The notes below the pieces were generated by a model. That model was not told where the DNA came from, ran no database searches, and saw only the letters and a program-made list of their open reading frames with translations. 64,000 bases of DNA, from assembly GCA_000002445.1 (NCBI GenBank), contig CH464491.1:2336001-2400000 (forward strand). Reading direction: 5' to 3'. The position numbers were made by a program, and so were the translations under genes. How positions within the stretch are numbered: position 1 is the first letter of the stretch; every line of letters starts with the position of its first letter. This DNA comes from Trypanosoma brucei (taxonomy: Eukaryota). This document shows, one piece after another, positions 1 to 41,643 of the stretch.

Positions 1-77
1 NNNNNNNNNNNNNNNNNNNNNNNNNNNNNNNNNNNNNNNNNNNNNNNNNNNNNNNNNNNNNNNNNNNNNNNNNNNNN
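1..77. other. Assembly gap (run of N) at the left edge of the window
   Basis: 77 consecutive N characters. They sit directly against a truncated copy of the tandem repeat unit, which suggests a collapsed or unresolved repeat array. Confidence 0.95.
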
Positions 78-78
78 C

Positions 79-762
79 GAACTTTGTTATATCTTTACCG
101 AAAAAACATATCGCTTTTTGCTTGGAGCTTCCATTGGCATTATGCAATGGCCCGATGCGTGTAATATACCGGGTGGCTCTGTCGATGATGGGACAGGTGT
201 GGGAAGGAAGTCAGTTGGTAGTGAACGTACATTCAAAATATTGCAAAGCAAAGAGGAATTACAGGAAATTGTTGATTTTATTTTTAATTCTTCGTATGAT
301 GAACTAAAGAAACATGAGCTGATGTGTAGACAGGTTTCGTTAAGAATAAGGTGGGCAACCTATCGATCCCGGCAGTATACTATGAATTTAGCCCAACATT
401 CAGATGACTCTGCAACCCTTCGCCGCGCAGTGGATGGTTTACTGTTACCGCATGCTGCAAAGTACTCAGATATGTCGTTACTGGGGATGCGTCTGTTAGA
501 CCTTATCTTTGCAAAAGACTTTCATATGAAAAAAAAGGGTGGTAACCAACTGTCTATTTCACAATTTATTCGCCCCAAGAAGCCGGGTGAGGTAACAGCA
601 ACCACCGGTATAAAAAGGGAGAGGACTACTGAACCGAAACAGGTTGTGGAAATAATAATATCATCAGATGACGAGGATGAGAATGATAGTGTTGGCTTGG
701 CATCTAGCTCCACTATACTCGTTTCAACTGGCAAAGGTACTGTGAGAGGGAAGTTACCATAA
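79..762 (+). CDS. POLK: DNA polymerase kappa (Y-family, DinB-like), partial copy: C-terminal ~228 codons only, 5' part lost in the gap
   Basis: The frame opens immediately after the N-run and is colinear with the C-terminal third of the full copies downstream (LLGASIGIMQWPDA ... QYSDDSATLRRAVDGLLLPHAAKYS ... SSDDEDENDSVGLASSS). The supplied ORF 118..762 begins at a TTG. The last codons differ from the other copies (KGTVRGKLP versus KGTVEREVTII). Confidence 0.8.
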   Translation, partial: ELCYIFTEKTYRFLLGASIGIMQWPDACNIPGGSVDDGTGVGRKSVGSERTFKILQSKEELQEIVDFIFNSSYDELKKHELMCRQVSLRIRWATYRSRQYTMNLAQHSDDSATLRRAVDGLLLPHAAKYSDMSLLGMRLLDLIFAKDFHMKKKGGNQLSISQFIRPKKPGEVTATTGIKRERTTEPKQVVEIIISSDDEDENDSVGLASSSTILVSTGKGTVRGKLP

Positions 763-1567
763 TTTAGTGAAGTGAGGACATCAGTCAATGGAAACGCTCA
801 CATTGCCCAATGGCATTCATATACAAATCACCTATACACAAGTACCCATAAACAAAACACATTATACACATGTATTGTTATACAGCTATCATATGTTTTC
901 ATTTTTTGAAGTTATACTTTATATGGTTTATTACTTACATTGTTTTTTCTTAAGCATGCTTGTGCTCATGTACAACCAGTGGAGCAACTGGCTAATAACT
1001 CCTTCATCTTTGTGCGGACACCTTGGTGTATCCTATACTTTCTTTGAGGCCTTCTAATCCAGGTACTTTTTACACACTGTGACGCTAATAAGTGTAGTTC
1101 TTTTGATTAATGTCTACTGCGTGCAGTGATGCGAAAAAGTGTGTACTTTATTTGTATGTTTATCTTCGGGTTTGATTTGTTTGGTTGCTGATGACAGTGG
1201 AAGGCCTCTGCAATTATGAAAACTCATAAGGAGGTCCACTACAATTATACTGTTGTTCCCAGATATACGGGTGTGCGCCTAAAGGGACACGTGACGTTCA
1301 AATTGGATATCCCTCCCATTGTTGACCGTATCTCACATTATTGGATATGTTGTAATCACTGACGGCTTGCTGTGAACTGCCACAGCTGTACACATGCACA
1401 CACATGTGATTCGGTTTTTCTTCTCCCAATATCCTTCCTTTCATATAATATAGGCAACCACACAATATTGGCACAACACCTGCTATCAAACTACCCTAAC
1501 CCAAGTGTCTGTTTGTTTCTTTACGTCACTGGGAGGGTTTTAACAAGAACTAACATTGAGTCTGACC

Positions 1568-3280
1568 ATGTGTGGGGGAGAAGAGAATGGTGGATTGGAT
1601 CAGGCACATGTGTCCTACAGTGGCAGTGCGAGTGAGCAAAACATTGCGGAAATGATTGTAGGCCCATCAGCTTCCATCACCATGGGTTTTCCGTTTTCCA
1701 TCGATTGCAATAAGGCAGGAATGGGAAATGTGGATAAGGAACGTGTGGAAGCTATTATACGTGATGCCAGGGAAGGATCCCCCTTTCTATTGAATGAACA
1801 ACGTTTGGCTGAGGGTCGAGAGAAGCAACTGCAAGAGCTCAAACGGAAATCATCTCTCTTCACTCAGTTGTTGGGTGGTGAACGAAACGCTGCGCAGCGG
1901 AAACAGTGGGAGCTGAAGGTTTCCAAAATGGAGCAGGAGCTTGAGGCTACGCGTCGACTGGGAACTTATATCCATTTAGACATGGACATGTTTTATGCTG
2001 CTGTTGAAATCAAGAAGCATCCGGAGTACGCCACCATTCCGCTTGCCATAGGCACCATGACGAGGCTACAAACAGCAAATTACATTGCGCGTGGACGTGG
2101 TGTCCGTCCCGGTATGCCAGGTTTCCTTGCTCTAAAAATCTGCCCAAATCTACTATTACTCCCTCCCGATGATGATTCTTACTATTTGGAATCCAATATC
2201 GTACGTCGTATTGTTGCTGAATACGACCCTAATTACATAGTTGTTGGTTTGGATGACTTTACTCTCGAAGTAAGTGCCTACATAGAGCGTTTTGAGGGAA
2301 CCAAAACAGCCGAAGATGTGGCTTCTGAACTGCGTGTGCGTGTATTTGGTGAAACAAAGTTGACAGCAAGTGCTGGTATTGGACCCACTGCAGCACTTGC
2401 CAAGATTGCCAGTAATATTAATAAGCCGAATGGACAACATGATCTTAATCTTCACACCCGAGGGGATGTGATGACATACGTCAGGGATTTGGGTCTACGT
2501 TCTGTGCCTGGTGTTGGGAAGGTTACGGAAGCTCTGTTGAAGGGACTGGGTATCACCACTCTCGGCGACATTCACGATAGGCGTGTTGAACTTTGTTACA
2601 TTTTGCACAATAATTTATTTCGCTTTTTGCTTGGAGCTTCCATTGGCATTATGCAATGGCCCGATGCAGCAACGGCAGCCAATACCGAGAATTGTGAGGG
2701 GGCTACTGGAGGGCAACGGAAGGCAATCAGTAGCGAGCGATCTTTTTATGTGTTACATAGCAAAGAGCAGTTGCATGAAATGATTTACAGTATTTTTGAA
2801 GAGGCCTATGAAGAAATGCGACAGAATGAGATGTTGTGTCGTCAGATCTCCTTGCTTGTGCGTTGGTCGTCTTATCGTTATCAACAATACACAAAAAGTT
2901 TGATACAATATTCAGATGACTCTGCAACCCTTCGCCGCGCAGTGGATGGTTTACTGTTACCGCACGCTGCAAAGTATTCAGAGATGTGTTTGTTGGGGGT
3001 ACGTTTTCTTGACCTTATCTCTGCAAAAGACTTTCATATGAAAAGAAAGGGTGGTAACCAACTGTCTATTTCACAATTTATTCGCCCCAAGAAGCCGGGT
3101 GAGGTAACAGCAACCACCGGTATAAAAAGGGAGAGGACTACTGAACCGAAACAGGTTGTGGAAATAATAATATCATCAGACGACGAGGATGAGAATGATA
3201 GTGTTGGCTTGGCATCTAGCTCCACTATACTCGTTTCAACTGACAAAGGTACTGTTGAGAGGGAAGTTACCATAATTTAG
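1568..3280 (+). CDS. POLK: DNA polymerase kappa (Y-family translesion polymerase), array copy 1
   Basis: Y-family motifs are visible: HLDMDMFYAAVE (motif I with catalytic Asp), VGLDDFTLEV (catalytic D/E), LTASAGIGPTAALAKIASNINKPNGQ (motif III/IV), and a helix-hairpin-helix region VPGVGKVTEALLKGLGI. The N-terminus resembles the pol kappa N-clasp (NKAGMGNVDKERVEAII). The first ATG of the frame is at 1568; the track start at 1556 is TTG. Confidence 0.9.
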   Translation: MCGGEENGGLDQAHVSYSGSASEQNIAEMIVGPSASITMGFPFSIDCNKAGMGNVDKERVEAIIRDAREGSPFLLNEQRLAEGREKQLQELKRKSSLFTQLLGGERNAAQRKQWELKVSKMEQELEATRRLGTYIHLDMDMFYAAVEIKKHPEYATIPLAIGTMTRLQTANYIARGRGVRPGMPGFLALKICPNLLLLPPDDDSYYLESNIVRRIVAEYDPNYIVVGLDDFTLEVSAYIERFEGTKTAEDVASELRVRVFGETKLTASAGIGPTAALAKIASNINKPNGQHDLNLHTRGDVMTYVRDLGLRSVPGVGKVTEALLKGLGITTLGDIHDRRVELCYILHNNLFRFLLGASIGIMQWPDAATAANTENCEGATGGQRKAISSERSFYVLHSKEQLHEMIYSIFEEAYEEMRQNEMLCRQISLLVRWSSYRYQQYTKSLIQYSDDSATLRRAVDGLLLPHAAKYSEMCLLGVRFLDLISAKDFHMKRKGGNQLSISQFIRPKKPGEVTATTGIKRERTTEPKQVVEIIISSDDEDENDSVGLASSSTILVSTDKGTVEREVTII

Positions 3281-4085
3281 TGAAATGAGGACATCAGTCA
3301 ATAGAAATTCCCACATTGCCCAATGGCATTCATATACAAATCACCTATACACAAGTACCCATAAACAAAACACATTATACACATGTATTGTTATACACCT
3401 ATCATATGTTTTCATTTTTTGAAGTTATACTTTATATGGTTTATTACTTACATTGTTTTTTTCTTAAGCATGCTTGTGCTCATGTACAACCAGTGGAGCA
3501 ACTGGCTAATAACTCCTTCATCTTTGTGCGGACACCTTGGTGTATCCTATACTTTCTTTGAGGCCTTCTAATCCAGGTACTTTTTACACACTGTGACGCT
3601 AATAAGTGTAGTTCTTTCTTTTGATTAATGTCTACTGCGTGCAGTGATGTGAAAAAGTCTGTACTTTATTTGTATGTTTATCTTCGGGTTTGATTTGTTT
3701 GGTTGCTGATGACAGTGGAAGGTCTCTGCAATTATGAAAACTCATAAGGAGGTCCACTATAATTATACTGTTGTTCCCAGATATACGGGTGTGCGCCTAA
3801 AGGGACAGGTGACGTTCAAATTGGATATCCCTCCCATTGTTGACCGTATCTCACATTATTGGATATGTTGTAATCACTGACGGCTTGCTGTGAACTGCCA
3901 CAGCTGTACACATGCACACACATGTGATTCGGTTTTTCTTCTCCCAATATCCTTCCTTTCATATAATATAGGCAACCACACAATATTGGCACAACACCTG
4001 CTATCAAACTACCCTAACCCAAGTGTCTGTTTGTTTCTTTACGTCACTGGGAGGGTTTTAACAAGAACTAACATTGAGTCTGACT

Positions 4086-5801
4086 ATGTGTGGGGGAGAA
4101 GAGAATGGTGGATTGGATCAGGCACATGTGTCCTACAGTGGCAGTGCGAGTGAGCAAAACATTGCGGAAATGATTGTAGACCCATCAGGTTCCCGTCAGC
4201 CCACAGCATTCCAACTCACACTCGATTGCAATAAGGCAGGAATGGGAAATGTGGATAAGGAACGTGTGGAAGCTATTATACGTGATGCCAGGGAAGGCAC
4301 ACCTTTTTTATTAAATGAACAACGTTTGGCTGAGGGTCGAGAGAAGCAACTGCAAGAGCTGAAGCGGAAATCATCTCTCTTCACTCGGTTGTTGGGTGGT
4401 GAACGAAACGCTGCGCAGCGGAAACAGTGGGAGCTGAAGGTTTCCAAAATAGAACAGGAGCTTGAGGCTACGCGTCGACTGGGAACTTATATCCATTTAG
4501 ACATGGACATGTTTTATGCTGCTGTTGAAATCAAGAAGCATCCGGAGTACGCCACCATTCCGCTTGCCATAGGCACCATGACTATGATAATAACAACAAA
4601 TTATGTTGCGCGTGGACGTGGTATTCGTCAAGGTATGCCAGGTTTCCTTGCTCTAAAAATCTGCCCAAATCTACTATTACTCCCTCCCGATGATGATTCC
4701 TACTATTTGGAATCCAATATCGTACGTCGTATTGTTGCTGAATACGACCCTAATTATATAGTTGTTGGTTTGGATGACTTTACTCTCGAAGTAAGTGCCT
4801 ACATAGAGCGTTTTGAGGGAACCAAAACAGCCGAAGATGTGGCTTCTGAACTGCGTGTGCGTGTATTTGGTGAAACAAAGTTGACAGCAAGTGCTGGTAT
4901 TGGACCCACTGCAGCACTTGCCAAGATTGCCAGTAATATTAATAAGCCGAATGGACAACATGATCTTAATCTTCACACGCGAGGGGATGTGATGACATAC
5001 GTCAGGGATTTGGGTCTACGTTCTGTGCCTGGTGTTGGGAAGGTTACGGAAGCTCTGTTGAAGGGACTGGGTATCACCACTCTCTCAGATATTTACAATA
5101 GGCGTGTTGAACTTTGTTACATTTTGCACAATAATTTATTTCGCTTTTTGCTTGGAGCTTCCATTGGCATTATGCAATGGCCCGATGCAGCAACGGCAGC
5201 CAATACCGAGAATTGTGAGGGGGCTACTGGAGAGCAACGGAAGGCAATCAGTAGCGAGCGATCCATCACTACTCCACGAACCAAAGAAGGTATGCAGGAA
5301 ATGGTTGATACCGTATTCAATGGTGCCTATGAAGAAATGCGGAAGAGTGAGATAATGTGTAGACGGATATCCCTCACAATTAGATGGGCCTCTTATCGTT
5401 ATCAACAATACACAAAAAGTTTGATACAATATTCAGATGACTCTGCAACCCTTCGCCGCGCAGTAGACGAGCTCATGTTACCGCACGCTGCAAAGTATTC
5501 AGAGATGTGTTTGTTGGGGGTACGTCTCTCGGACCTTATCTCTGCAAAAGACTTTCATATGAAAAGAAAGGGTGGTAACCAACTGTCTATTTCACAATTT
5601 ATTCGCCCCAAGAAGCCGGGTGAGGTAACAGCAACCACCGGTATAAAAAGGGAGAGGACTACTGAACCGAAACAGGTTGTGGAAATAATAATATCATCAG
5701 ATGACGAGGATGAGAATGATAGTGTTGGCTTGGCATCTAGCTCCACTATACTCGTTTCAACTGGCAAAGGTACTGTTGAGAGGGAAGTTACCATAATTTA
5801 G
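4086..5801 (+). CDS. POLK: DNA polymerase kappa, array copy 2
   Basis: Same motifs as copy 1; first ATG at 4086. It differs from copy 1 in discrete blocks (DPSGSRQPTAFQLTL, MTMIITTNYVARGRGIRQGMP, and a little-finger segment SITTPRTKEGMQEMVDTVFNGAYEEMRKSEIMCRRISLTIRWASYRY). Confidence 0.9.
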   Translation: MCGGEENGGLDQAHVSYSGSASEQNIAEMIVDPSGSRQPTAFQLTLDCNKAGMGNVDKERVEAIIRDAREGTPFLLNEQRLAEGREKQLQELKRKSSLFTRLLGGERNAAQRKQWELKVSKIEQELEATRRLGTYIHLDMDMFYAAVEIKKHPEYATIPLAIGTMTMIITTNYVARGRGIRQGMPGFLALKICPNLLLLPPDDDSYYLESNIVRRIVAEYDPNYIVVGLDDFTLEVSAYIERFEGTKTAEDVASELRVRVFGETKLTASAGIGPTAALAKIASNINKPNGQHDLNLHTRGDVMTYVRDLGLRSVPGVGKVTEALLKGLGITTLSDIYNRRVELCYILHNNLFRFLLGASIGIMQWPDAATAANTENCEGATGEQRKAISSERSITTPRTKEGMQEMVDTVFNGAYEEMRKSEIMCRRISLTIRWASYRYQQYTKSLIQYSDDSATLRRAVDELMLPHAAKYSEMCLLGVRLSDLISAKDFHMKRKGGNQLSISQFIRPKKPGEVTATTGIKRERTTEPKQVVEIIISSDDEDENDSVGLASSSTILVSTGKGTVEREVTII

Positions 5802-6606
5802 TGAAATGAGGACATCAGTCAATAGAAATTCCCACATTGCCCAATGGCATTCATATACAAATCACCTATACACAAGTACCCATAAACAAAACACATTATA
5901 CACATGTATTGTTATACACCTATCATATGTTTTCATTTTTTGAAGTTATACTTTATATGGTTTATTACTTACATTGTTTTTTTCTTAAGCATGCTTGTGC
6001 TCATGTACAACCAGTGGAGCAACTGGCTAATAACTCCTTCATCTTTGTGCGGACACCTTGGTGTATCCTATACTTTCTTTGAGGCCTTCTAATCCAGGTA
6101 CTTTTTACACACTGTGACGCTAATAAGTGTAGTTCTTTCTTTTGATTAATGTCTACTGCGTGCAGTGATGCGAAAAAGTCTGTACTTTATTTGTATGTTT
6201 ATCTTCGGGTTTGATTTGTTTGGTTGCTGATGACAGTGGAAGGTCTCTGCAATTATGAAAACTCATAAGGAGGTCCACTATAATTATACTGTTGTTCCCA
6301 GATATACGGGTGTGCGCCTAAAGGGACACGTGACGTTCAAATTGGATATCCCTCCCATTGTTGACCGTATCTCACATTATTGGATATGTTGTAATCACTG
6401 ACGGCTTGCTGTGAACTGCCACAGCTGTACACATGCACACACATGTGATTCGGTTTTTCTTCTCCCAATATCCTTCCTTTCATATAATATAGGCAACCAC
6501 ACAATATTGGCACAACACCTGCTATCAAACTACCCTAACCCAAGTGTCTGTTTGTTTCTTTACGTCACTGGGAGGGTTTTAACAAGAACTAACATTGAGT
6601 CTGACT

Positions 6607-8322
6607 ATGTGTGGGGGAGAAGAGAATGGTGGATTGGATCAGGCACATGTGTCCTACAGTGGCAGTGCGAGTGAGCAAAACATTGCGGAAATGATTGTAG
6701 ACCCATCAGGTTCCCGTCAGCCCACAGCATTCCAACTCACACTCGATTGCAATAAGGCAGGAATGGGAAATGTGGATAAGGAACGTGTGGAAGCTATTAT
6801 ACGTAATGTATCTGAGGGTTCTTCCTTTTTGATGAATGAACAACGTTTGGCTGAGGGTCGAGAGAAGCAACTGCAAGAGCTCAAACGGAAATCATCTCTC
6901 TTCACTCAGTTGTTGGGTGGTGAACGAAACGCTGCGCAGCGGAAACAGTGGGAGCTGAAGGTTTCCAAAATAGAACAGGAGCTTGAGGCTACGCGTCGAC
7001 TGGGAACTTATATCCATTTAGACATGGACATGTTTTATGCTGCTGTTGAAATCAAGAAGCATCCGGAGTACGCCGCCATTCCGCTTGCCATAGGCACCAT
7101 GACGAGGCTACAAACAGCAAATTACATTGCGCGTGGACGTGGTGTTCGATGTAGCATGCCAGGTTTCCTTGCTCTAAAAATCTGCCCGAATTTGCTCATT
7201 CTGCCTCCTGATTTCGATGCTTACAACGAGGAATCCAATACTGTGCGCCGTATTGTTGCTGAATACGACCCTAATTATATCAGCTTTGGTTTGGATGAAC
7301 TGACCCTTGAGGTAAGTGCCTACATAGAGCGTTTTGAGGGAACCAAAACAGCCGAAGATGTGGCTTCTGAACTGCGTGTGCGTGTATTTGGTGATACAAA
7401 GTTGACAGCAAGTGCTGGTATTGGACCCACTGCAGCACTTGCCAAGATTGCCAGTAATATTAATAAGCCGAATGGACAACATGATCTTAATCTTCATACC
7501 CGAGAGGATGTGATGACATACGTCAGGGATTTGGGTCTACGTTCTGTGCCTGGTGTTGGGAAGGTTACGGAAGCTCTGTTGAAGGGACTGGGTATCACCA
7601 CTCTCTCAGATATTTACAATAGGCGTGTTGAACTTTGTTACATTTTGCACAATAATTTATTTCGCTTTTTGCTTGGAGCTTCCATTGGCATTGTGCAATG
7701 GCCCGATGCAGCAACGGCAGCCAATACCGAGAATTGTGAGGGGGCTACTGGAGGGCAACGGAAGGCAATCAGTAGCGAGCGATCCATCACTACTCCACGA
7801 ACCAAAGAAGGTATGCAGGAAATGGTTGATACCGTATTCAATGGTGCCTATGAAGAAATGCGGAAGAGTGAGCTGATGTGTAGACGCATTTCGTTAAGAA
7901 TAAGGTGGGCCTCCTATCGTTATCAACAATACACAAAAAGTTTGATACAATATTCAGATGACTCTGCAACCCTTCGCCGCGCAGTGGATGGTTTACTGTT
8001 ACCGCATGCTGCAAAGTATTCAGAGATTTCACTGTTGGGGGTACGTTTTCTTGACCTTATCTTTGCAAAAGACTTTCATATGAAAAGAAAGGGTGGTAAC
8101 CAACTGTCTATTTCACAATTTATTCGCCCCAAGAAGCCGGGTGAGGTAACAGCAACCACCGGTATAAAAAGGGAGAGGACTACTGAACCGAAACAGGTTG
8201 TGGAAATAATAATATCATCAGACGACGAGGATGAGAATGATAGTGTTGGCTTGGCATCTAGCTCCACTATACTCGTTTCAACTGACAAAGGTACTGTTGA
8301 GAGGGAAGTTACCATAATTTAG
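6607..8322 (+). CDS. POLK: DNA polymerase kappa, array copy 3
   Basis: Same motifs; first ATG at 6607. It carries its own variant blocks (RNVSEGSSFLMNE; LILPPDFDAYNEESNTVRR ... NYISFGLDELTLEV). The catalytic D/E residues are retained. Confidence 0.9.
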   Translation: MCGGEENGGLDQAHVSYSGSASEQNIAEMIVDPSGSRQPTAFQLTLDCNKAGMGNVDKERVEAIIRNVSEGSSFLMNEQRLAEGREKQLQELKRKSSLFTQLLGGERNAAQRKQWELKVSKIEQELEATRRLGTYIHLDMDMFYAAVEIKKHPEYAAIPLAIGTMTRLQTANYIARGRGVRCSMPGFLALKICPNLLILPPDFDAYNEESNTVRRIVAEYDPNYISFGLDELTLEVSAYIERFEGTKTAEDVASELRVRVFGDTKLTASAGIGPTAALAKIASNINKPNGQHDLNLHTREDVMTYVRDLGLRSVPGVGKVTEALLKGLGITTLSDIYNRRVELCYILHNNLFRFLLGASIGIVQWPDAATAANTENCEGATGGQRKAISSERSITTPRTKEGMQEMVDTVFNGAYEEMRKSELMCRRISLRIRWASYRYQQYTKSLIQYSDDSATLRRAVDGLLLPHAAKYSEISLLGVRFLDLIFAKDFHMKRKGGNQLSISQFIRPKKPGEVTATTGIKRERTTEPKQVVEIIISSDDEDENDSVGLASSSTILVSTDKGTVEREVTII

Positions 8323-8744
8323 TGAAATGAGGACATCAGTCAATAGAAATTCCCACATTGCCCAATGGCATTCATATACAAATCACCTATACACAAGTAT
8401 TGTTATACAGCTATCATATGTTTTCATTTTTTGAAGTTATACTTTATATGGTTTATTACTTACATTGTTTTTTTCTTAAGCATGCTTGTGCTCATGTACA
8501 ACCAGTGGAGCAACTGGCTAATAACTCCTTCATCTTTGTGCGGACACCTTGGTGTATCCTATACTTTCTTTGAGGCCTTCTAATCCAGGTACTTTTTACA
8601 CACTGTGACGCTAATAAGTGTAGTTCTTTCTTTTGATTAATGTCTACTGCGTGCAGTGATGCGAAAAAGTCTGTACTTTATTTGTATGTTTATCTTCGGG
8701 TTTGATTTGTTTGGTTGCTGATGGCAGTGGAAGGCCTCTGCAAT

Positions 8745-8890
8745 TATGTTTGTGTTTTTGTTTCTCTGTGTTGCTGTTTTTCTATATTTTTGGAGTTTGT
8801 TTTTTTTCTTCCTGTTTTTTTGCACTTCTTTTCTTTGCTTTCCTCTTGCAACATATTTTTTTATGTAATTGTATTTTTTTTGTGTGTGTA
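8745..8890 (+). promoter_or_regulatory. Unusually long (~145 nt) polypyrimidine/T-rich tract; putative trans-splicing and polyadenylation signal region upstream of the divergent polymerase paralog
   Basis: This stretch is almost entirely T/C/G with T-runs (tgtttgtgtttttgtttctctgtgttgctgtttttctatatttttggagtttgttttttttcttcctgttttttt...). Kinetoplastid pre-mRNA processing is directed by poly-Y tracts upstream of the AG splice-acceptor. Confidence 0.55.
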
Positions 8891-8971
8891 ATGGTGGCGG
8901 ATGTTGTTTTTGTTTTAGTAGTTGAAGTTTTTGTTTGTTGTTGGATTGAGAGCGACAACGGTAGTTTGCTG

Positions 8972-10636
8972 ATGGTTTCGTTTATTTACAGCTGCGTCTC
9001 TAGTCGTCTGATGTTTGCTAGTGTGAAGAGGGCTGTTGGGCAATATTCATGTTTTCATGTGATTTGTTCCCCGCGCTTCCACAGTAACTATGTTGTGGGG
9101 GTCAACAAGGCGCCTAGTTGGATCGCGTCCCCGACAGAAAGGCGACGAAAGTTTGGTGAAGAGTGCCTTGCCGAAGGTAAAGAGCGGGATGGCGACATGG
9201 ATGTAGAGCTTGTTCCCGTGGACGTGAAAAAGCTTGCTTTGCCCCTGCACCTCACGGACTCGATCCCGCAGGATATCGTCGATAATATCGTTGCGAGAGA
9301 TAGAACACTTGTTTTCGCGCCAAACATGAAGATACTAGACCTGCACAGGCGGTTGTCCCGGATGAAGTATCGGATAAGCGTCCAGCCGCTTGGGAAGGTG
9401 CTGCACTTCCGATTCTTTCGGCTGTGTAAATTGTCCAGCGGTATGCCCGGAGATGTTACAGTGGAAACCTTCCGCAGCATCCAGCAGAAACTCTCCGAGT
9501 ACACAAGATTTTTGGTGATGGATGAACGTTGGCCACTGGAGTTGTCATTAGAAATTACCCCCATTATTGAGCATCAACGGAAGCAAATGCTTGAATGCCA
9601 AGGGGAATGCCGCGTTTCAACGGCGGAGGATGTAATGGAGTTACTTAGTAGTGTTTTTTCCGCTGAGCTCCGCGTGGGGGCGTGGTGCGGTTTGTCTTGC
9701 ACACCAGTCTTGGCGAAGATGGCGTGCGACGAGTGTCACAGGAAACACAAACTATGCCGACAGGACTATTCTCGCGGTGGGGTAGTAGGTACCGTGCGTT
9801 ACGATATTAGGTCGCACAAGGAGGCAAAGGAGTTTGTGCAGAACCTTTCGTTGGGCGATATTCCTGTTGTTGGGAAGCCACAGGCGAGGCTCCTGGAAGA
9901 TGTTTATGGCATTACCAAATGCGGCGGGATTGCGGATCAGGAGGTAAGACTGGGTTTCAGCCTGTCGCAGTCGACGATGGAGTTCTTCCTCTCTGTAGCG
10001 TATGGCACCGTTCGACTCCCTAGCGAGGCCACCACCACGCTTTTGCGCAAACCGCCGAGATGTAAGGCCGCCCATATACGGCGCGAGTCACAGTTTGGCC
10101 GTGTGGTATCAGACGAACAGTTTATCAACACCGTAATGTCCGTCTTCGACAACGTGTACACAGACCTTGTGGAACATGATTTCGTGACGGGACGGGTCAT
10201 GATCGAGACACGCCGCACACTCCCGCGCACTCATTGGGTGGTTGAAGAGAGCGAAGACATTGCGCCCCGAACGAACGACCGCGATTTGCTGCGGGAGGTA
10301 ACGATCCGCCTCGCAAGACGTTTTGCCCCACGGCGAACCGAAGAGCTGCGAGACATTTACAGCGTTGGTGTTCATTTCGGAGACGTGCGCTCGTGGTCAG
10401 AGAATGAGAGGTTGCAGAAGAAAGCTGTTGCAGTGAGCGAAGGGGGCAGCCCCACGACAGGCGGAAGGAAGGATGGCGTTATCGGTGCGGCGAACGGTGT
10501 CCCGGCGCCTACAGTGCCCAAGGGTAGCTCTTCCGCTGGGGCACGACAGCAGAAAAGAAAGAGAACGGGCACCGGTCCAAAGCCGTTGAGGAAAGGCAAG
10601 ATGGGGGCGGCATCGGGAATTCGCATCGTCACATAA
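8972..10636 (+). CDS. Divergent Y-family polymerase (pol kappa-like) paralog with a degenerate motif set and a basic Gly/Lys/Arg-rich C-terminal tail; start codon uncertain (candidates 8891, 8972, 9011)
   Basis: Colinear but weak similarity to the array copies: DMDVELVPVD versus DMDMFYAAVE; LVMDERWPLELSLEI versus VGLDDFTLEV; SCTPVLAKMACDECHRKHKLCRQ versus GIGPTAALAKIASNINKPNGQ; GDIPVVGKPQARLLEDVYGITKCGGI versus VPGVGKVTEALLKGLGITTLGDI. The track ORF 8702 starts at TTG inside the poly-Y tract, so the true start is a downstream ATG. The C-terminus GGRKDGVIGAANG...QQKRKRTGTGPKPLRKGK looks like a nuclear localisation signal. Confidence 0.6.
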   Translation: MVSFIYSCVSSRLMFASVKRAVGQYSCFHVICSPRFHSNYVVGVNKAPSWIASPTERRRKFGEECLAEGKERDGDMDVELVPVDVKKLALPLHLTDSIPQDIVDNIVARDRTLVFAPNMKILDLHRRLSRMKYRISVQPLGKVLHFRFFRLCKLSSGMPGDVTVETFRSIQQKLSEYTRFLVMDERWPLELSLEITPIIEHQRKQMLECQGECRVSTAEDVMELLSSVFSAELRVGAWCGLSCTPVLAKMACDECHRKHKLCRQDYSRGGVVGTVRYDIRSHKEAKEFVQNLSLGDIPVVGKPQARLLEDVYGITKCGGIADQEVRLGFSLSQSTMEFFLSVAYGTVRLPSEATTTLLRKPPRCKAAHIRRESQFGRVVSDEQFINTVMSVFDNVYTDLVEHDFVTGRVMIETRRTLPRTHWVVEESEDIAPRTNDRDLLREVTIRLARRFAPRRTEELRDIYSVGVHFGDVRSWSENERLQKKAVAVSEGGSPTTGGRKDGVIGAANGVPAPTVPKGSSSAGARQQKRKRTGTGPKPLRKGKMGAASGIRIVT

Positions 10637-10861: not shown

Positions 10862-12394
10862 ATGCAAAGGTCGCTGTACCTGCCATTCTTTTCTCATCCC
10901 TGCTCATTATTCATTTGCGTCCTTTCCAGGACTTCCTTTTCACCCATTTTCTGTATCCTCATCCTTCGCCTGCAGGTAGCGCTCAGATACCGCGGCATGT
11001 GGCGTCACAGCTGTATTCTTCATGGAATACCCCCTGCAGAGGGGCTGATGACAACCCCCGGAACGCTGCCGCCCACTTCATCCTCTCCGCGTTGTACGCA
11101 CACTTGTGTGGTTCGTGACCAACACCGCGGCCGTGACAACCGCGATTTCGCGCTTTTATCCACGTCGGCATCTCCCGGGGGTCGGCTGCTCTCCTTGCAT
11201 ATCGATAGCGAGCGGGCGGAACTGCGCCAGGCGCGGATCGCAGCTGTGAGTGATTCCCTGTTGAAAACAAGGGGGGCCGCCATGCACTTGCGTCTGACTT
11301 CCTCCCGGAGTGGTGGCGTGGCGCGCGGCGCTGGGTTTGACGCTGGCGAACAAACTCGGGGGAAAGTGCCAACGCCCCTTCAAATGACACCGTGGAGCCG
11401 CGTGGATACCACTGTTTTGGTTACAGATGACTATTGTGAACCGGTACGGCGCCTCCGGCTGTACAGTGAGCATGAGGACACCGCGGTCGTAATGGCGCCG
11501 GACGCGTTGTACCAACTGCGGTTGGATCCGCTGATAAGGGAGTGCTTCTTCGATGTGGGTTGCGCGGCTGTGAACGCAACGGCGGTGGACTGCTGGGGGC
11601 CGCATTGCGCGGTCGTCGGATTTTCTTCGGGTGATTTGTCCGTTGTTGACTGGCGTGACCCAGGTGGTGGTCCGCTGCTGCGGACCAGGCCGCCTCAGCC
11701 ACCATTTGTTGCCCTACCGAAGTGCGGACGGCGCCTTGCAACTGCTCCACTATTTACAGGTGTGATGTCGTGTTGCTCGCTGGATGATGGATTCCGAATT
11801 GTGTGCGGGTTTGGAGATTTCGCCGGAACAGTTGTGGTTGCAGACCTGCGGAAAGCCGTGACGAACTCGAGCGATAAAAGGAAGAGTGGTCGCCGTTCTT
11901 TGGGGAAGGAAGGTCAGGATGCCGTTCTTACTGGCTCCTTTTCATCACCCACCTCCTACCCAGTATGCGACATGAGGCACTGTCGTGACAGCTTTGGCAC
12001 AATTGGCATGGTAGACACAGGAGGGACGGCACTCCTAACGTCAATAGGTGCACTGGAGTCGGGCGCTCTAAAGGCCCGTCGAGCACGGTGTGGGGCGGTT
12101 GCCAATGGAACCTTCGTGAGCGAACTCAAGCGTGGTGATGATGTTCCTATTAAGCATACGCGTGCCCTGCGGTGTGACGTTTCACCAAATGGATCTTTTG
12201 TAGCGAGCACGGCTGCGGGGCCTTGGTCAGCTTCACTTACAACCCTTTGTGGTAGGAGTGTTCCTCTTGGTTTCGGCTACTCTGCGGTGGAGGGGCTTGG
12301 AGAAGAGGTGTTCACGTCGATTTCATGTATGGGATCGGTCGTGGGCGCTCAGGCAATAGATGGGAGCGTCGTCCACGCCACCATTGAACCGTAA
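10862..12394 (+). CDS. Hypothetical protein (possible beta-propeller/WD-like repeats); the N-terminal ~45 codons are probably UTR, and ATG 10997 is an alternative start
   Basis: A long ORF in the same orientation as its neighbours. Its upstream part translates a pyrimidine-rich stretch (LYLPFFSHPCSLFICVL), which is typical of UTR. No motif I can name with confidence. Confidence 0.4.
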   Translation: MQRSLYLPFFSHPCSLFICVLSRTSFSPIFCILILRLQVALRYRGMWRHSCILHGIPPAEGLMTTPGTLPPTSSSPRCTHTCVVRDQHRGRDNRDFALLSTSASPGGRLLSLHIDSERAELRQARIAAVSDSLLKTRGAAMHLRLTSSRSGGVARGAGFDAGEQTRGKVPTPLQMTPWSRVDTTVLVTDDYCEPVRRLRLYSEHEDTAVVMAPDALYQLRLDPLIRECFFDVGCAAVNATAVDCWGPHCAVVGFSSGDLSVVDWRDPGGGPLLRTRPPQPPFVALPKCGRRLATAPLFTGVMSCCSLDDGFRIVCGFGDFAGTVVVADLRKAVTNSSDKRKSGRRSLGKEGQDAVLTGSFSSPTSYPVCDMRHCRDSFGTIGMVDTGGTALLTSIGALESGALKARRARCGAVANGTFVSELKRGDDVPIKHTRALRCDVSPNGSFVASTAAGPWSASLTTLCGRSVPLGFGYSAVEGLGEEVFTSISCMGSVVGAQAIDGSVVHATIEP

Positions 12395-12915
12395 TGGGAG
12401 TTATTTGAGTGCCAGAAGATTGATCACCCGGTGGGCAGTTTTTTGTGTGTGCCTTCTCTGTGAATTACTGTGGTGCAGTTGTAAAATATTTCCACCGATG
12501 TCTCTCTTCTCACGGGCGCAATATTGAGAAACTCGGTCGGATCTTTTTTTTCCTCCCTCTTACGGGACCACAATAAAAACTGAAACCAATGAAATGGGTT
12601 GCTTCAAACCCCTGCTGTTAGTTGAATTGTTGTTCGTGCTTTATGACAACTTTTCCCCCTGTGGTGTACTGCACCGCTGATGCTACAGTTTCGCCGTCAC
12701 CCGCCGTTTGTCTTTTGACTGCCGGCTGTAGGCGGCCGTGTTGCAGTTGGCGAATAGCGCTTAAGGTAAGTTTTTCACAAACCCCCATCGCCCAGTGTTT
12801 TTCTTACAACCTGCTATCATTTGCCCTTTGTCTTCGCTTATGTGTTGCGATGCGCTTACGCACGCAAGTAGTGGGAATAGGACAGCTTAGAACATCTTTT
12901 ACTTCACGAATTTGT

Positions 12916-14496
12916 ATGGGTCGTAGGAGCAACTCTGTCTTCTTCCATCTTTGGCTGAGCTTTGCTTCCCTTTGCCTGGGAAACAGCGACAGTTCAGAGG
13001 GGTCACCCCCAGTTTCTAATGGGACATCGCCTGTAGTTTTGAGTGATCAGTCGGTAGCTAATATGGAAGCAAACGACTCTCAATGGAAGCCTATTCGCAT
13101 CGTGGTATCGGCGAAGGACCTTGATGACTCACTGAAGTATTGCGTGGTGGCCGGCGTCCCCCGGCCCGACTTTATGGGCGGGACTTTGCGCTGCAAAACT
13201 GGCGATGTATTGACGAATGAAAAACGACTAATACTTACAGAGCACGCCCTTCCCAGTGCTATCCACTTACATGCCGAGAGACTTCTTGTTGGCATGGAAA
13301 TCGACAACATCGTCGTTCCAGAGTTTGATTCACCTGCGTGTAAAAGTTTCACCGTTCCCATACATCACCGTTCTGTCGGTGTGCCGCAGGCGGATATTAT
13401 TTTGTACGTGGCTTCTGGGCCTGCGCCTCACGATGGTCCCGCTTACGCAACAACATGTGCTTCGCTTCTCTCTGGGCGTCCAATCGCAGGGGCCATAAAT
13501 TTCTCTCCTAGCGCAATCACTGAGTCGTACCTGTACATTCGGACCGTCGCCCACGAAATAGCCCACGTGCTTGGCTTCAATTTCGAAGCCATGAAGCAGC
13601 TCAACATGGTGGGTACAAAAAATATCCGAGGTAAGTCCTCTGTGAAGGTTGTAAAGACACCCAATGTAGTTAAGGTGGCACGTCAATATTACGGTTGCGG
13701 CAAGATCACTGGCATGGAACTGGAAGATAATGGGGATGACAGCGTACGTAACTCGCACTGGAAACGCCGCATTGCAAGAGACGATCTAATGACTGCCATC
13801 ATGGGGGTTAGTCACTACAGTGAGCTAACATTGGCCTTTTTCCTTGATACGGGGTTTTATAGGGTAAATTGGGAGAAAGGGGAACGTATGCGATGGGGCC
13901 ATGGGGCGGGCTGCAGTTTCATAGAGGGAAAATGCATGGAAAACAATGAAACAAACTTCCCAGACATGTTCTGTAACGACTCTGCGGAAACGCTGTCCTG
14001 CACACATGACCGACAAGCACTTGGGCGCTGCACTGTGCATTCATATGCCGTACCCATAGAGGAAAGTGTGCGATACTTCACGATGTCCTGGGTAGGAGGC
14101 AGTGACAATAATCTAATGGACTATTGCCCTGTTGTAGAACCCTATACGGATAGCTACTGCCGAGATGGTCGGCGGGAGCTGTTACCCGGTAGCCGCATAG
14201 GGGAGAGTTCACGTTGCGTTAAGGGTGAAGGACTAGTTGCCTTCACTACTCATGTTGGCGACATATGTGTGGAGATTCATTGTGGAAAGAGGAGGGGAGT
14301 TAGTATACGTTACAGTGGTGATGATAGCTGGCACGTGTGCCCAGAGGGTGGGCATGTGACGCCCGATAAAACCTTTTCAGAAGGCCGCATTGTGTGCCCT
14401 AAGTGGGAAGAAGTTTGCGACGACAATGCCATGACTCTATCATGTCTAGCTGCCGTGTTCGCCATCTTCGTCAGTGCCCTTTCTTTGGTTGTATGA
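12916..14496 (+). CDS. GP63: GP63 / leishmanolysin-family zinc metalloprotease (major surface protease)
   Basis: HExxH zinc-binding motif in leishmanolysin context (VAHEIAHVLGFN). The mature region is Cys-rich. An N-terminal signal peptide follows ATG 12916 (MGRRSNSVFFHLWLSFASLCLG). The hydrophobic C-terminal tail (LSCLAAVFAIFVSALSLVV) is consistent with a GPI-anchor signal. The track ORF 12622 starts at TTG; ATG 12850 is an alternative start. Confidence 0.8.
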   Translation: MGRRSNSVFFHLWLSFASLCLGNSDSSEGSPPVSNGTSPVVLSDQSVANMEANDSQWKPIRIVVSAKDLDDSLKYCVVAGVPRPDFMGGTLRCKTGDVLTNEKRLILTEHALPSAIHLHAERLLVGMEIDNIVVPEFDSPACKSFTVPIHHRSVGVPQADIILYVASGPAPHDGPAYATTCASLLSGRPIAGAINFSPSAITESYLYIRTVAHEIAHVLGFNFEAMKQLNMVGTKNIRGKSSVKVVKTPNVVKVARQYYGCGKITGMELEDNGDDSVRNSHWKRRIARDDLMTAIMGVSHYSELTLAFFLDTGFYRVNWEKGERMRWGHGAGCSFIEGKCMENNETNFPDMFCNDSAETLSCTHDRQALGRCTVHSYAVPIEESVRYFTMSWVGGSDNNLMDYCPVVEPYTDSYCRDGRRELLPGSRIGESSRCVKGEGLVAFTTHVGDICVEIHCGKRRGVSIRYSGDDSWHVCPEGGHVTPDKTFSEGRIVCPKWEEVCDDNAMTLSCLAAVFAIFVSALSLVV

Positions 14497-35711: not shown

Positions 35712-36943
35712 ATAGGGATCTCCTCCAATCTATCGAACGGCTGCGTCCTTTTTCCAGAAGAGTTGTATCTGTTGATTTGCCCGTGGTGGAGATGGCAAGG
35801 GTGAGTTATATATGTAACTAGCATGTGGGGTTGTACTATCCAAAGCCCATGTAGGTAGTCAATAAATGTGTACAGTTGGTTGTCGAGGTGGGGGTGTTGC
35901 GTGCGTTGGTGAGGAGGGTGTGCTTTTTGTATGCATACAACGTATGCTTACCTCCCATCCACCACAACCACAACCTCCAACCAGTCAGAATGCTCGTTTT
36001 GTTCTTCGCTTTTCACCGTATTCGGTACTGTTGCTTCTACCCAAATTTGAACACTTTGCTTTAAGTATTATCTTTTTTCTTTGTTTGCTCCGCCACGACA
36101 AGTCAACGACTGTGCCGCGACGGCGCCTTAGTGGCGGCCCCTCCGTCGTTGCCCTTTTGCTCTGTAGAAGATATGTCGCTTTCTGCTTATTTGCTGAAAA
36201 GCAAATACGGGCGCCATTCAGCTGATCCGGCGTCACGTACTGTGTGGACGGTCACTGCTAGGTTTCCAGTCTGTTTATTTCCCTCCTTTTTTTGAGCTTA
36301 GTTGGGCACTAGTTTTCTTCCCTATGCCTGAAAATAAAAATCGTGGCGTGCCTTCGCTGGGCCACCGCGGTTTGTGGCGAGACGGGGAGAAGCCCGCGCC
36401 AAACGCAACGGGTTTCAGGAGTACATATGTCGGGGCCCACTTTAATTGTAGGTTTACGCGCCCCGCTACTAAAACATGGTGGTTAGGAAATTTTAGTAAG
36501 ATGATATACCGCTGCGGGCACCAACTTACCCGCCATTGCGGTGTCAAGGTCCAGCGCCGCCCATATCGGTGGACAACAAAACGCCAGCACCTTCGACATG
36601 TCGAGCTGGTTTCGGAGGTGCATTTACAATCACCCGACGGTGCCCCAATGAGGTGCGATGGTCACTTGAGGGGAAGGAAGAAGCGTTAGTTCGCAATTCG
36701 GCATAGCGGGGCAAACCGTATGTTTAGCCTAGTGTGCAGCGAAAAGAAAGGCGTGCGCGAATTTACAATAAACTGCTTCTCGCCGGATTTGCCTTCCGGT
36801 GCACTGCCAAGGTGCTGATCCAGAGGCGACAGGATGCAAGAGCAAAAAAAGGGGAAGGATCATACAAACATACGTAGATGCACACACGTACGCTTATGCA
36901 TTTGTTGTTTGTGAATGTGGCACCGAAGAGGGAACGAATCCCA

Positions 36944-37065
36944 GGGGGGGGGGAGGTTTTGATCGAGTTCTGTGGGGGTGAACTGCGTTAGTAAAGAGTG
37001 TGGGAAAAAACTCCCCCGCGGCAGATGCTTCCACCGCCTCCGGGACAGCCGGGACCCCCCCCCCC
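36944..37065. repeat. Homopolymer pair: G10 (36944-36953) and C11 (37055-37065) about 100 bp apart
   Basis: ccaggggggggggagg ... gggaccccccccccctt. Plus C13 at 15442-15454 and A12 at 32524-32535 elsewhere in intergenic DNA. Confidence 0.85.
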
Positions 37066-37780
37066 TTCCTTTGACAGCGAGCTAGTGATCCGCAAAAGCG
37101 AACAACAACACCCCGCTAGGATATTCGGGATCTGGCGGGGATTGAACCCCCAGGCCGCTTCGTCTCACGGGACCGTGCCGCCGGTAGTGTCTTTAGGGGC
37201 GCCAACGGGCGGAAGCGAATGTGGATGATTCGGCTGCGGTTCTACCCTTCGCATTCGTGCCATCATGCGCAATAGTATCTACGCCACCGACGCTGCAAGA
37301 ACGCGGAGGTGTTACGAGCGGTTTGTGTATGTTGCAGAGGGGGAGAAGGAGAAAGGAAAGTATCCTTTTTTGTTTCCACTGCGGTCGCACGTGTAAGGGA
37401 TTTCGTGAGGCCAAACAGCATTCACTTCAACCTCTCACACTATCACCTTCTTTCCCTCTTTAGCTTCCATATTTTGGAGAGCTGTACAACACCTCTGCAG
37501 CGATTTTTGACACATCCTGCAAAAATCTATTTCTACCACAAACTTCGTCCGGATTGAAAAAACACCAAGAGCACTCGCCTCGAGGGCGATCCCTCATGTG
37601 GCTATAGTTTTCTCCTGGGACTTTCACTTCCAATCTTAACTCATGTTGTCGTCTGCTTTGGTGTAGCTTTCGCACCTCCAAGCTTCGCGTGCACACACAC
37701 CATGGTAGATTCACCGAGCGCAGACTCCGCGGCCATAGCAACTCAACGGTACACGGAACTTCTCTGAACCGCTTATAGCC

Positions 37781-37820
37781 TATATATATACATATATATA
37801 TATATACATTTTTTTTGCAT
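37781..37820. repeat. TA-rich simple repeat ((TATA)/(TATATACA) runs followed by T8)
   Basis: tatatatatacatatatatatatatacatttttttt, inside the long gene-free region. Confidence 0.9.
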
Positions 37821-39384
37821 TAAAGTTCCCAATAGTTCCCCAAACGACCTTCCAACGCCCGCCCAGCCACTCACTCGATCACGCGTGTGTAAATTTTGAC
37901 CCTCGATTCGGTTTCCTCTCATGCCCCCTTTTGGTTGTCGCAATTCACGTATTTTCGTCACGCCGCAATCCATATATACAAACTGTCCCTTGTGGCCCGT
38001 GATCCCCATTCCGCAAATACCGAGAGTGGCTCATGGCTTTCCAACGTTACACGCTCCCCTTTTCCGCAAAAGCATGAGGACCCGTAGACGACACCACCTC
38101 GTAAAGCGACTGCAGCCTGCCGCCGGGCTCGGGTACCCTCGTCCCGGTTGCGCGGGGTTTGGTTGTTTTCGCTTTCAAACCTTCCTGGAGCAAGGGCAAA
38201 TGGGGAGCTTGGTTCAGCCTCTTTTTCGCAGCGTCGACTGTCAGCCGCGGCCCTTTCAACGCCGATTTAGCTATTGCGTGTTTTCCACCGCCTCGACCGT
38301 ATGGCCTGTTCACGCTGGCTCTCCACACCATGGCAGCTCTGTTCCCACTTCTAACTCGATCTTAACTAATACAAAACCGCTACTTTCCTCAACGACAATC
38401 GCTAATGGAGTGCTGGGGTCTCGTGCGCCAAAGCTTATCGGGGAAGGAGGCTAACCCCCACCCGTGATCACGACGCGCAGCCACCTACGCCGCCAAAAGT
38501 CGCAACGCTGTCAAATGCCTTCGCTTGGCCCTCGAAAATGAGGAATTGTGGATTGAAGTTACTGCTGCCGCAGATGCTTGGGGCGGCCGAAGCCGCCATC
38601 GGCGTTGCGCGCGGTCGCCGTTTGCACGATAGCATATGCATACGATGTACATGAACTGCAACCCGCTTCGGATGTTTTACACCCGCGGCGGCGTCGCGAA
38701 ATGGCAACGCCTAAGTATGGGGTCCCCCTGGACACTTGTGTGATCCGCCGCACCCCTTACCGAAACTGGTAAGAGGAAGGGAAGCTAGCTATTGCGAATG
38801 GGCCGCAGCGGCAGCGAGCAGCCGACCTCAGAACCAAAGGAAGTGCGCTTTAGACGGATAATCGGTGCTGTTTCTTACCGAAAGGGTGAACGGATGCGCG
38901 GTGGAGGAAGGGGGAAACTGCCAAAGAGGGCTTGTGCCACCGCAAAAACGAGTGCGTACGCGACGGGAATGGTAGACAGAGATTACGAAAGCGGGGGCAT
39001 GCCCGGCGATTGTCAAATGAGAGCGAAACACCGAGTAGCGGTGAACGGGGGCCCGTCAGCACTGACTTGTTTGCAGCCGTGACCGGTTGCCAAAATTGAG
39101 CGTTACGCAGAACATTTTTTTTTTGGAATTTTCTTCGTGCCTTCGTGGGAGTTTCCCCCAACTGGCGCGGCCATCAGCCATCACCGTAGAGCCCTGAGAT
39201 GCTATCGGTCTGGCGACTGTGGCAGAGTCTCCCTTTTTTATTCAGCCTAACACACCCTCTATAATTTTTGTTGTAGCTCCGCAGTTGAACGGAATACAGC
39301 AGATGGGGCGAGAAGCCCCCACCCCAGACTCTCCAAAAGATGTCAATTAGCAATCCTTTTGTTTTGATTTTTGTTATTCGTTTA

Positions 39385-41565: not shown

Positions 41566-41643
41566 CGTGATGGGACTGAACTCACTCGCTATCGTCTTTA
41601 TGGGTGCCGGTGGGTGTGAGTCGGGGTGCCTTCTTGCGCGGGA

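Follow-up and report, generated by a model that had tools for sequence, protein, structure and literature searches.

Discrete mosaic cassettes among near-identical DNA polymerase kappa genes of a Trypanosoma brucei tandem array

The array and its products

We analysed a stretch of 64,000 nucleotides (nt) of Trypanosoma brucei brucei TREU927 chromosome 11 (assembly GCA_000002445.1, contig CH464491.1, positions 2,336,001 to 2,400,000; hereafter the window), which at positions 79-8748 carries the downstream end of a tandem array of DNA polymerase kappa (Pol kappa) genes. One truncated and three complete units of 2.52 kb each lie head to tail on the same strand, and each combines an intronless 1.71-kb gene for the Y-family polymerase with a 0.8-kb spacer, giving unit periods of 2518, 2521 and 2521 nt. 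The open reading frames (ORFs) of the complete copies, numbered 1 to 3, occupy 1556-3280, 4074-5801 and 6595-8322, with likely ATG starts at 1568, 4086 and 6607, and the truncated ORF of copy 0 ends at 762. An initial annotation of the sequence had closed the array at 8740; the repeat instead runs to about 8748.

Copies 1-3 match the Pfam families IMS (E about 1e-37 to 1e-39), IMS_HHH and IMS_C above the gathering score, and an IMS_C domain is detected in copy 0. Human Pol kappa structures were matched by phmmer at E=1e-71 with the N-clasp region included; the alignment begins at chain residue 17, in the region of KAGM…DKE…I, a Pol kappa-specific N-clasp motif kept in all copies. The trypanosome proteins share with the human enzyme (PDB 2OH2, 5T14 and others) the domain order with N-clasp, the steric-gate FY and both catalytic Asp residues, and differ from it in lacking its long palm insertion and in the Asp that copies 1 and 2 carry at the positions of human E199 and F171. 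No homology to the C-terminal region of human Pol kappa was detected in the structure match, beyond which no search was made. By domain architecture and N-clasp, the predicted proteins belong unambiguously to the Pol kappa/DinB branch of the Y family.

The window holds part of a larger family. The TREU927 genome has 10 annotated Pol kappa products on the same chromosome record (EAN79810 to EAN79821), the last four of which correspond to copy 0 (partial) and copies 1-3; the copy 1 protein is 100% identical to XP_828931 ('DNA polymerase kappa, putative'), on a 5.26-Mb record. The array of T. b. gambiense contains 7 Pol kappa copies. Since an N gap adjoins the truncated copy, the copy number and order of the whole array are not fixed by GCA_000002445.1.

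The initial annotation described almost identical spacers and mostly shared coding sequence, and this is what we found: spacers among the window copies are 97.3-99.8% identical and coding sequences 91.6-94.0%. Spacer identity is 97-99.9% even across subspecies, whereas coding identity ranges from 84 to 99.9%. The locus therefore presents same-strand head-to-tail repeats with homogenised non-coding spacers, the configuration of an array under concerted evolution.

Several small features accompany this organisation. A 1-nt deletion at about 740-762 turns the C-terminus of copy 0 from …EREVTII* into …RGKLP*, and the spacer that follows likewise has a deviating start with five additional bases (TTTAG). 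A 29-nt unit, repeated 1.9 times, is present in every inter-copy spacer (818-874, 3331-3387 and 5852-5908) and was the only spacer repeat picked up by a Tandem Repeats Finder scan with a longest period of 500. The array of T. equiperdum ends in the same 456-nt partial-spacer tail as the window.

Blocks of difference and recombination among copies

We aligned the three full units over 2526 columns, which contain 188 substitution sites and a few indels. Substitution counts per 50 nt have a variance/mean ratio of 7.99, against a maximum of 1.84 among 5000 random placements, and 20 of the 51 bins are empty where 1.1 would be expected. When each site is labelled by the odd copy out, the label switches 38 times along the alignment, as compared with 113.1±6.1 (minimum 89) in 20000 permutations. 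Given this clustering and the few label switches, the differences are blocks rather than scattered point changes, and the bounded blocks reported by the initial annotation are real; the nucleotide alignment excludes even scatter. Identical stretches reach 476 nt.

The variable segments touch the N-clasp, fingers, palm (catalytic Glu included) and thumb as well as the little finger (Table 1). Copy 1 is marked by the N1 version GPSASIT-MGFPFSI, PPDDDSYYLE, the catalytic LDDF motif, GDIHD and the little-finger sequence SFYVLHS…. All peptide blocks quoted in the initial annotation occur in the three full ORFs and the truncated one, although its description needs several adjustments. The fingers block said to be common to copies 1 and 3 is present in both but not identical, with two residues differing between …GVRCSMP (copy 3) and …GVRPGMP (copy 1). 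The catalytic block regarded as unique to copy 3 exists, but it is the ancestral-like version, closest to all outgroups. The little-finger block does fall into three major classes in the window; its length is about 100 residues (copy 3 residues 347-450) and not about 45. Finally, the list had overlooked blocks in the N-clasp (62-85), thumb (334-339) and distal little finger (462-487).

Table 1. Features of the array in the window; coordinates are window positions, and coding sequences (CDS) are given from their likely start codons. UTR, untranslated region.
Feature	Position	Strand	Remarks
Assembly gap, run of 78 N	1..78		cuts array upstream of copy 0
Copy 0 (EAN79818, partial), 3' 684 nt of Pol kappa CDS	79..762	+	ancestral-like little-finger cassette IFTEKTY…RKSVGSERTF…
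Spacer 1 (3'UTR, intergenic, 5'UTR)	763..1567	+	97.3-97.9% identity to other spacers
Copy 1 CDS (EAN79819, 570 aa)	1568..3280	+	most derived isoform
Cassette N1, copy 1	1661..1705	+	counterparts 4179-4226, 6700-6747; 18 substitutions and a 3-nt indel in ~42 nt
Cassette N2 (N-clasp), copy 1	1748..1819	+	counterparts 4269-4340, 6790-6861
Fingers cassette, copy 1	2033..2140	+	counterparts 4554-4661, 7075-7182; holds human M135 and A151 equivalents
Palm/catalytic cassette, copy 1	2156..2266	+	counterparts 4677-4787, 7198-7308; holds human F171 and E199 equivalents
Thumb mini-cassette, GDIHD vs SDIYN	2564..2581	+	counterparts 5085-5102, 7606-7623
Little-finger cassette, copy 1	2603..2914	+	counterparts 94-402 (copy 0), 5124-5435, 7645-7956; three major classes in window
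Distal little-finger cassette, copy 1	2948..3025	+	counterparts 5469-5546, 7990-8067
Spacer 2	3281..4085	+	99.8% identical to spacer 3
Copy 2 CDS (EAN79820, 571 aa)	4086..5801	+	recombinant; fingers cassette MTMIITTNYV
Spacer 3	5802..6606	+	
Copy 3 CDS (EAN79821, 571 aa)	6607..8322	+	terminal copy; canonical PPDFDAY and LDEL catalytic motifs
Terminal partial spacer	8323..8748	+	aligns to 5802-6257 (3 mismatches, one 30-nt deletion); array end

We compared these copies with the complete array of T. b. gambiense DAL972 (7 copies) and with 7 T. equiperdum units, the first of which is partial. On 12 full coding sequences, the pairwise homoplasy index (PHI) is 0.204 against 0.338±0.005 after permutation (no value so low in 1000 permutations), incompatibilities affect 33-44% of informative site pairs, and the Hudson-Kaplan minimum number of recombination events (Rm) is 31-47. 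Phylogenetic incongruence along the alignment, with tracts common to otherwise different copies, is thus statistically supported. We also tabulated cassette classes in 19 copies, comprising ten TREU927 proteins (those upstream of the gap compared as proteins only), the seven gambiense copies and two T. equiperdum copies. The table distinguishes 13 segments with two to seven variants apiece, and these are incongruently combined among the copies: identical cassette haplotypes are common to non-adjacent copies and to three subspecies. Copy 2, for example, combines the palm cassette of copy 1 with a little finger resembling those of gambiense copies 1 and 6. The initial annotation had proposed segmental gene conversion within a family larger than the part seen, and the 10-copy and 7-copy arrays, the incongruent cassettes, the PHI and Hudson-Kaplan results and the published conversion tracts all agree with it.

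Synonymous (pS) and non-synonymous (pN) differences, counted by the Nei-Gojobori method, indicate how old the cassettes are. Mean pS is 0.21-0.42 inside the blocks and 0.033 between them, and reaches 0.51-0.63 between little-finger classes, where some pairs are saturated. These classes are about 50% identical in protein sequence, no higher than the 43-54% that they share with the T. congolense orthologue. For palm/thumb residues 235-333, identity is 98-100% within T. brucei and 72-74% to T. congolense. Such high cassette pS in a homogenised background argues that the cassettes are old segments and not recent local bursts of change. Judged by this divergence, the comparison shows segments that escaped homogenisation and appear to have been shuffled within the array. 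To polarise the cassettes, we aligned the copies with sequences from T. congolense, T. cruzi, T. theileri, Leishmania and mouse. Ancestral-like versions occur in copy 0, EAN79812, EAN79815, gambiense copy 2 and T. equiperdum unit 5, as exemplified by the little-finger form IFTEKTY…RKSVGSERTF, and the ancestral-like fingers motif GSVSMLST occurs in EAN79814 and EAN79815. Copies 1-3 carry derived versions for the most part. The mosaics are older than the split of T. b. brucei, T. b. gambiense and T. equiperdum.

The substitution ratios also bear on selection. For pooled blocks pN/pS is 0.37-0.49 (p≤3e-4), with values of 0.29 in the palm/catalytic block and 0.45-0.56 in the little finger, and no cassette exceeded 1 when pN/pS was computed for each. 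Copy 1 and its gambiense counterpart differ with a pN/pS of 0.2 (p=4e-4), and copy 1 has therefore been constrained since the subspecies split. Selection on the cassettes is, by these counts, purifying.

Origin of the mosaics and possible function of the cassettes

We consider it very probable that the window copies are gene-conversion mosaics in a homogenised array. A chimeric origin, in which the assembly pieced together fictitious copies from reads of a collapsed or mis-joined repeat, would draw on the N gap adjoining the array, on 2.5-kb units whose long identical stretches are difficult for Sanger-era assembly, and on copy 2, whose exact combination is found nowhere else. Against it, units 0, 1 and 3 have whole-unit counterparts at 98.5-98.9% in two independent assemblies: T. 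equiperdum unit 2 (98.8%) and gambiense unit 2 (98.5%) for unit 0, gambiense units 5 and 3 (98.9% and 98.8%) for unit 1, and the terminal T. equiperdum unit (98.5% over the whole unit) for unit 3. The counterparts keep the same relative order along their arrays. Even for copy 2, each cassette is found in other copies at 0-2 mismatches per 60 nt. Furthermore, for copies 8-10, Table S2 of Jackson 2007 (PMC1855330) gives single voucher reads running across the recombinant tracts. Because the same mosaics recur in other assemblies, they are real, which answers the concern about collapsed repeats raised in the initial annotation; an assembly artefact is an unlikely source of the pattern in general, and stitched, non-existent copies are to our minds extremely improbable. 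The blocks could also have been local hot spots of in-situ diversification, driven by positive selection or targeted mutagenesis on DNA-contacting segments. Variable residues do sit at specificity-determining positions, the fingers block of copies 2 and 3 gives a pN/pS of about 0.96, and Poveda et al. 2020 (PMC7576959) favoured M2 over M1 in codeml and found five sites by fixed effects likelihood (FEL) in the seven gambiense copies. This explanation is nevertheless very unlikely, as pS in the blocks exceeds the background by a factor of 6-13 and is saturated in part, pN/pS lies significantly below 1, and the same cassette haplotypes recur, incongruently combined, in non-adjacent copies and three subspecies. 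Moreover, site-model tests of positive selection are known to give false positives on recombining sequences.

Some observations count against the gene-conversion reading or limit it. Three copies are too few to give the direction and timing of single conversion events, saturated pS allows no more than rough cassette ages, and the TREU927 copies upstream of the gap enter the comparison at the protein level only. The gap itself means that this assembly does not fully resolve the array, and the exact combination of copy 2 has no identical counterpart in the other assemblies, its best match being gambiense unit 6 at 97.4%.

We also considered a programmed cassette-donor system that generates diversity, resembling those of variant surface glycoproteins (VSG) or immunoglobulins (Ig), and rejected it. 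Such a system would have silent or pseudogene donors that supply an expressed acceptor, fast turnover and an excess of non-synonymous change. Here every full-length copy is an intact ORF flanked by the same spacers, pN/pS stays below 1, and the same mosaics are stable across three subspecies.

Under the gene-conversion reading, inter-copy recombination, by unequal crossing-over and gene conversion, would keep the spacers and most of the coding sequence near-identical, while at least seven short segments (15-310 nt) would persist as two to six old alternative versions. Short-tract conversion would shift these versions between copies, so that each gene becomes a different combination. The cassettes may persist through selection for distinct isoforms, or through divergence that hinders heteroduplex formation. 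Trypanosome gene arrays are usually co-transcribed as polycistrons, and all units are presumably co-transcribed in one polycistron here. With old mosaics under purifying selection, the array therefore encodes a limited and stable group of Pol kappa isoforms that differ slightly from one another, and is not a fast generator of diversity.

Whether the cassettes matter to the enzyme can be approached through the human protein, to which the alignment is gap-free at the positions concerned, with an offset of 32 residues. The equivalents of human D107 and D198 and the steric-gate FY motif (Y112) are conserved in all copies. Copies 1, 2 and 3 differ at the equivalents of M135 (Arg, Met and Arg, respectively), A151 (Gly, Gly and Ser), F171 (Asp, Asp and Phe) and the catalytic E199 (Asp, Asp and Glu). 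The last difference lies in LDDF at 2245-2256 (copy 1) and 4766-4777 (copy 2) as against LDEL at 7287-7298 (copy 3). Of nine TREU927 products and seven gambiense copies, five and three, respectively, have Asp at the E199 position. We scanned 136 homologues with a regular expression for the catalytic motif; about 18 were mis-hits on the N-clasp motif, and only properly matched sequences were counted. Among these, Asp was found in 8, all of them array copies of the T. brucei group, and Glu in the 103 others. According to a review of mammalian Pol kappa, lesion selectivity depends on the 127-141 active-site loop, M135, A151 and F171 (PMC6695781).

The variable active-site residues are leads for a functional difference or for reduced activity, and their placement at human Pol kappa specificity positions suggests that the isoforms may differ in lesion bypass. 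Purifying selection and conservation across three subspecies fit maintained functional differences without proving them. The initial annotation had seen in the little finger a sign of functional diversification rather than simple dosage amplification; the data do not show this, as no cassette has a pN/pS above 1 and the variation is not peculiar to that domain. Extended to the whole array, the idea would be a selectively maintained translesion polymerase toolkit: cassettes at the N-clasp, the active-site loop, the F171 'brake', the catalytic Glu/Asp and the little finger would give distinct specificities, conversion would make the combinations and selection would keep the cassettes. A T. brucei-specific Asp-Asp catalytic variant could be among its isoforms. 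We regard this as rather doubtful. In copies 1 and 2, the replacement of the catalytic Glu by Asp could reflect reduced activity rather than new specificity, and the pN/pS of about 0.96 for the fingers cassette of copies 2 and 3, which comes from few sites and is not significant, also speaks against it. The same conversion mechanism could operate on cassettes that have no function, as relics of old paralogues whose local divergence blocks heteroduplex formation and homogenisation, in an array kept for dosage with some Asp-Asp copies weakened. Such relics would fit the cassette boundaries, which fall within domains and not at domain borders, the better homogenisation of spacers than of coding sequence, and the restriction of the catalytic Glu-to-Asp change to T. 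brucei-group copies among the 136 homologues. They are harder to reconcile with purifying selection on the variant cassettes, which has also acted on the most derived copy after the subspecies diverged (pN/pS 0.2), with the open reading frames kept by all 17 full-length copies in two genomes, and with distinct isoforms held at the same array positions in three subspecies. We treat the relic explanation as possible, if less likely than not.

Related loci, neighbouring genes and the published record

The locus is array 112 of Jackson 2007 and 2010, and shows nothing different in kind from what those papers describe. It resembles the PGK, hsp70, hexose transporter, ISG65 and GRESAG4 arrays of T. 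brucei, which show segmental gene conversion and lie head to tail in polycistrons, with homogenised untranslated regions and chimaeric copies. It differs from them in that its product is a DNA repair enzyme and not a surface or metabolic protein, and in that the retained segments include active-site residues. Chimaeric copies are given for 21 of 47 arrays in Jackson 2007 (PMC1855330), and mosaics for 31 of 35 in the 2010 paper (PMC2854126).

In T. cruzi and T. theileri, the syntenic locus holds three genes: paralogous long and short forms of Pol kappa and, after them, a divergent Y-family-like gene. Each long/short pair shares one sharply bounded fingers/palm tract, of 578 nt at 99.8% in T. 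cruzi (L004, 8001-9815 vs 11750-13303) and of 609 nt at 98.5% in T. theileri (L006, 8001-9830 vs 12074-13615); outside the tract, blastn returned no further alignment between the paralogues. The polarity is opposite to that in T. brucei: the fingers/palm core alone is homogenised, and the N-terminus and little finger are fully distinct. Segmental conversion between Pol kappa paralogues is thus recurrent in the trypanosome lineage. The short paralogue of T. cruzi is reported to be mitochondrial (Rajão et al. 2009, as cited in PMC7576959), and it has no counterpart at the syntenic position in T. brucei (window 79-10636 and gambiense loci L001 and L003). In T. brucei, the long-form array is expanded and the divergent Y-family-like gene lies directly next to it.

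This neighbour, a conserved and highly divergent Y-family-like gene directly 3' of the array, occupies 8702-10636 on the plus strand, with a probable start near 9197. We considered the ORF as a further array member and rejected it: its identity to copy 3 is just 24%, and it is the orthologue of a conserved gene distinct from the array genes. It shares about 50% identity with T. cruzi L004 14168-15811 and T. theileri L006 14223-15920. Its IMS match is weak (24 bits). It reads LELSLE where polymerases read LDELTLE and has no DMDxFYAAVE motif, so its product may be a catalytically inactive pseudo-polymerase.

Further along the window, at about 36000-43000, there is a reversal in the sign of the GC skew, together with the only two long minus-strand ORFs (39385-41565 and 41644-42828); every other long ORF in the window is encoded on the plus strand. 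This suggests a short block of opposite-strand genes or a strand-switch region. In T. equiperdum (L002, 1706-14130), several array units are annotated as fragments of 126, 251 and 370 aa, and the annotation leaves the unit at 11714-14130 without a gene; this unit is also short of about 115-214 nt of spacer. These features may reflect indel errors of the assembly or real pseudogenisation.

The mosaic character of this array is already on record. In Jackson 2007 (PMC1855330), the same locus appears as array 112, represented by Tb11.01.0080, with 10 copies on chromosome 11 of TREU927; Table S2 of that paper gives five conversion tracts of 56-310 nt involving copies 3-6 and 8-10, with GENECONV and SiScan p-values down to 1e-21. 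Table 2 of Jackson et al. 2010 (PMC2854126) compares these 10 copies with 7 in T. b. gambiense and counts four shared isoforms. For the same array the paper gives a PHI p<0.001, 9 likelihood-ratio test (LRT) breakpoints and at least 10 GARD breakpoints, and its general conclusion is that such arrays hold sequence mosaics. Poveda et al. 2020 (PMC7576959) noted the expansion of the array and reported positively selected sites by codeml and FEL, with recombination unaccounted for. Gene-conversion mosaicism at this locus was therefore published in 2007 and 2010, and the present finding is a correct re-discovery. Relative to the consulted portions of the Jackson papers, the details added here are the comparison of cassette with background pS, the identification of the ancestral-like cassettes, the Glu-to-Asp change in the catalytic dyad and the mapping to human M135, A151 and F171.

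In summary, our analysis adds to a known mosaic array that its cassettes are old and under purifying selection, that variable positions coincide with known human specificity residues, and that about half of the copies carry Asp for the catalytic Glu. With seven to ten Pol kappa genes, T. brucei is unusual. If the isoforms differ in function, they would constitute a natural experiment on how active-site and little-finger segments set translesion specificity, and they could bear on DNA damage tolerance in the parasite.

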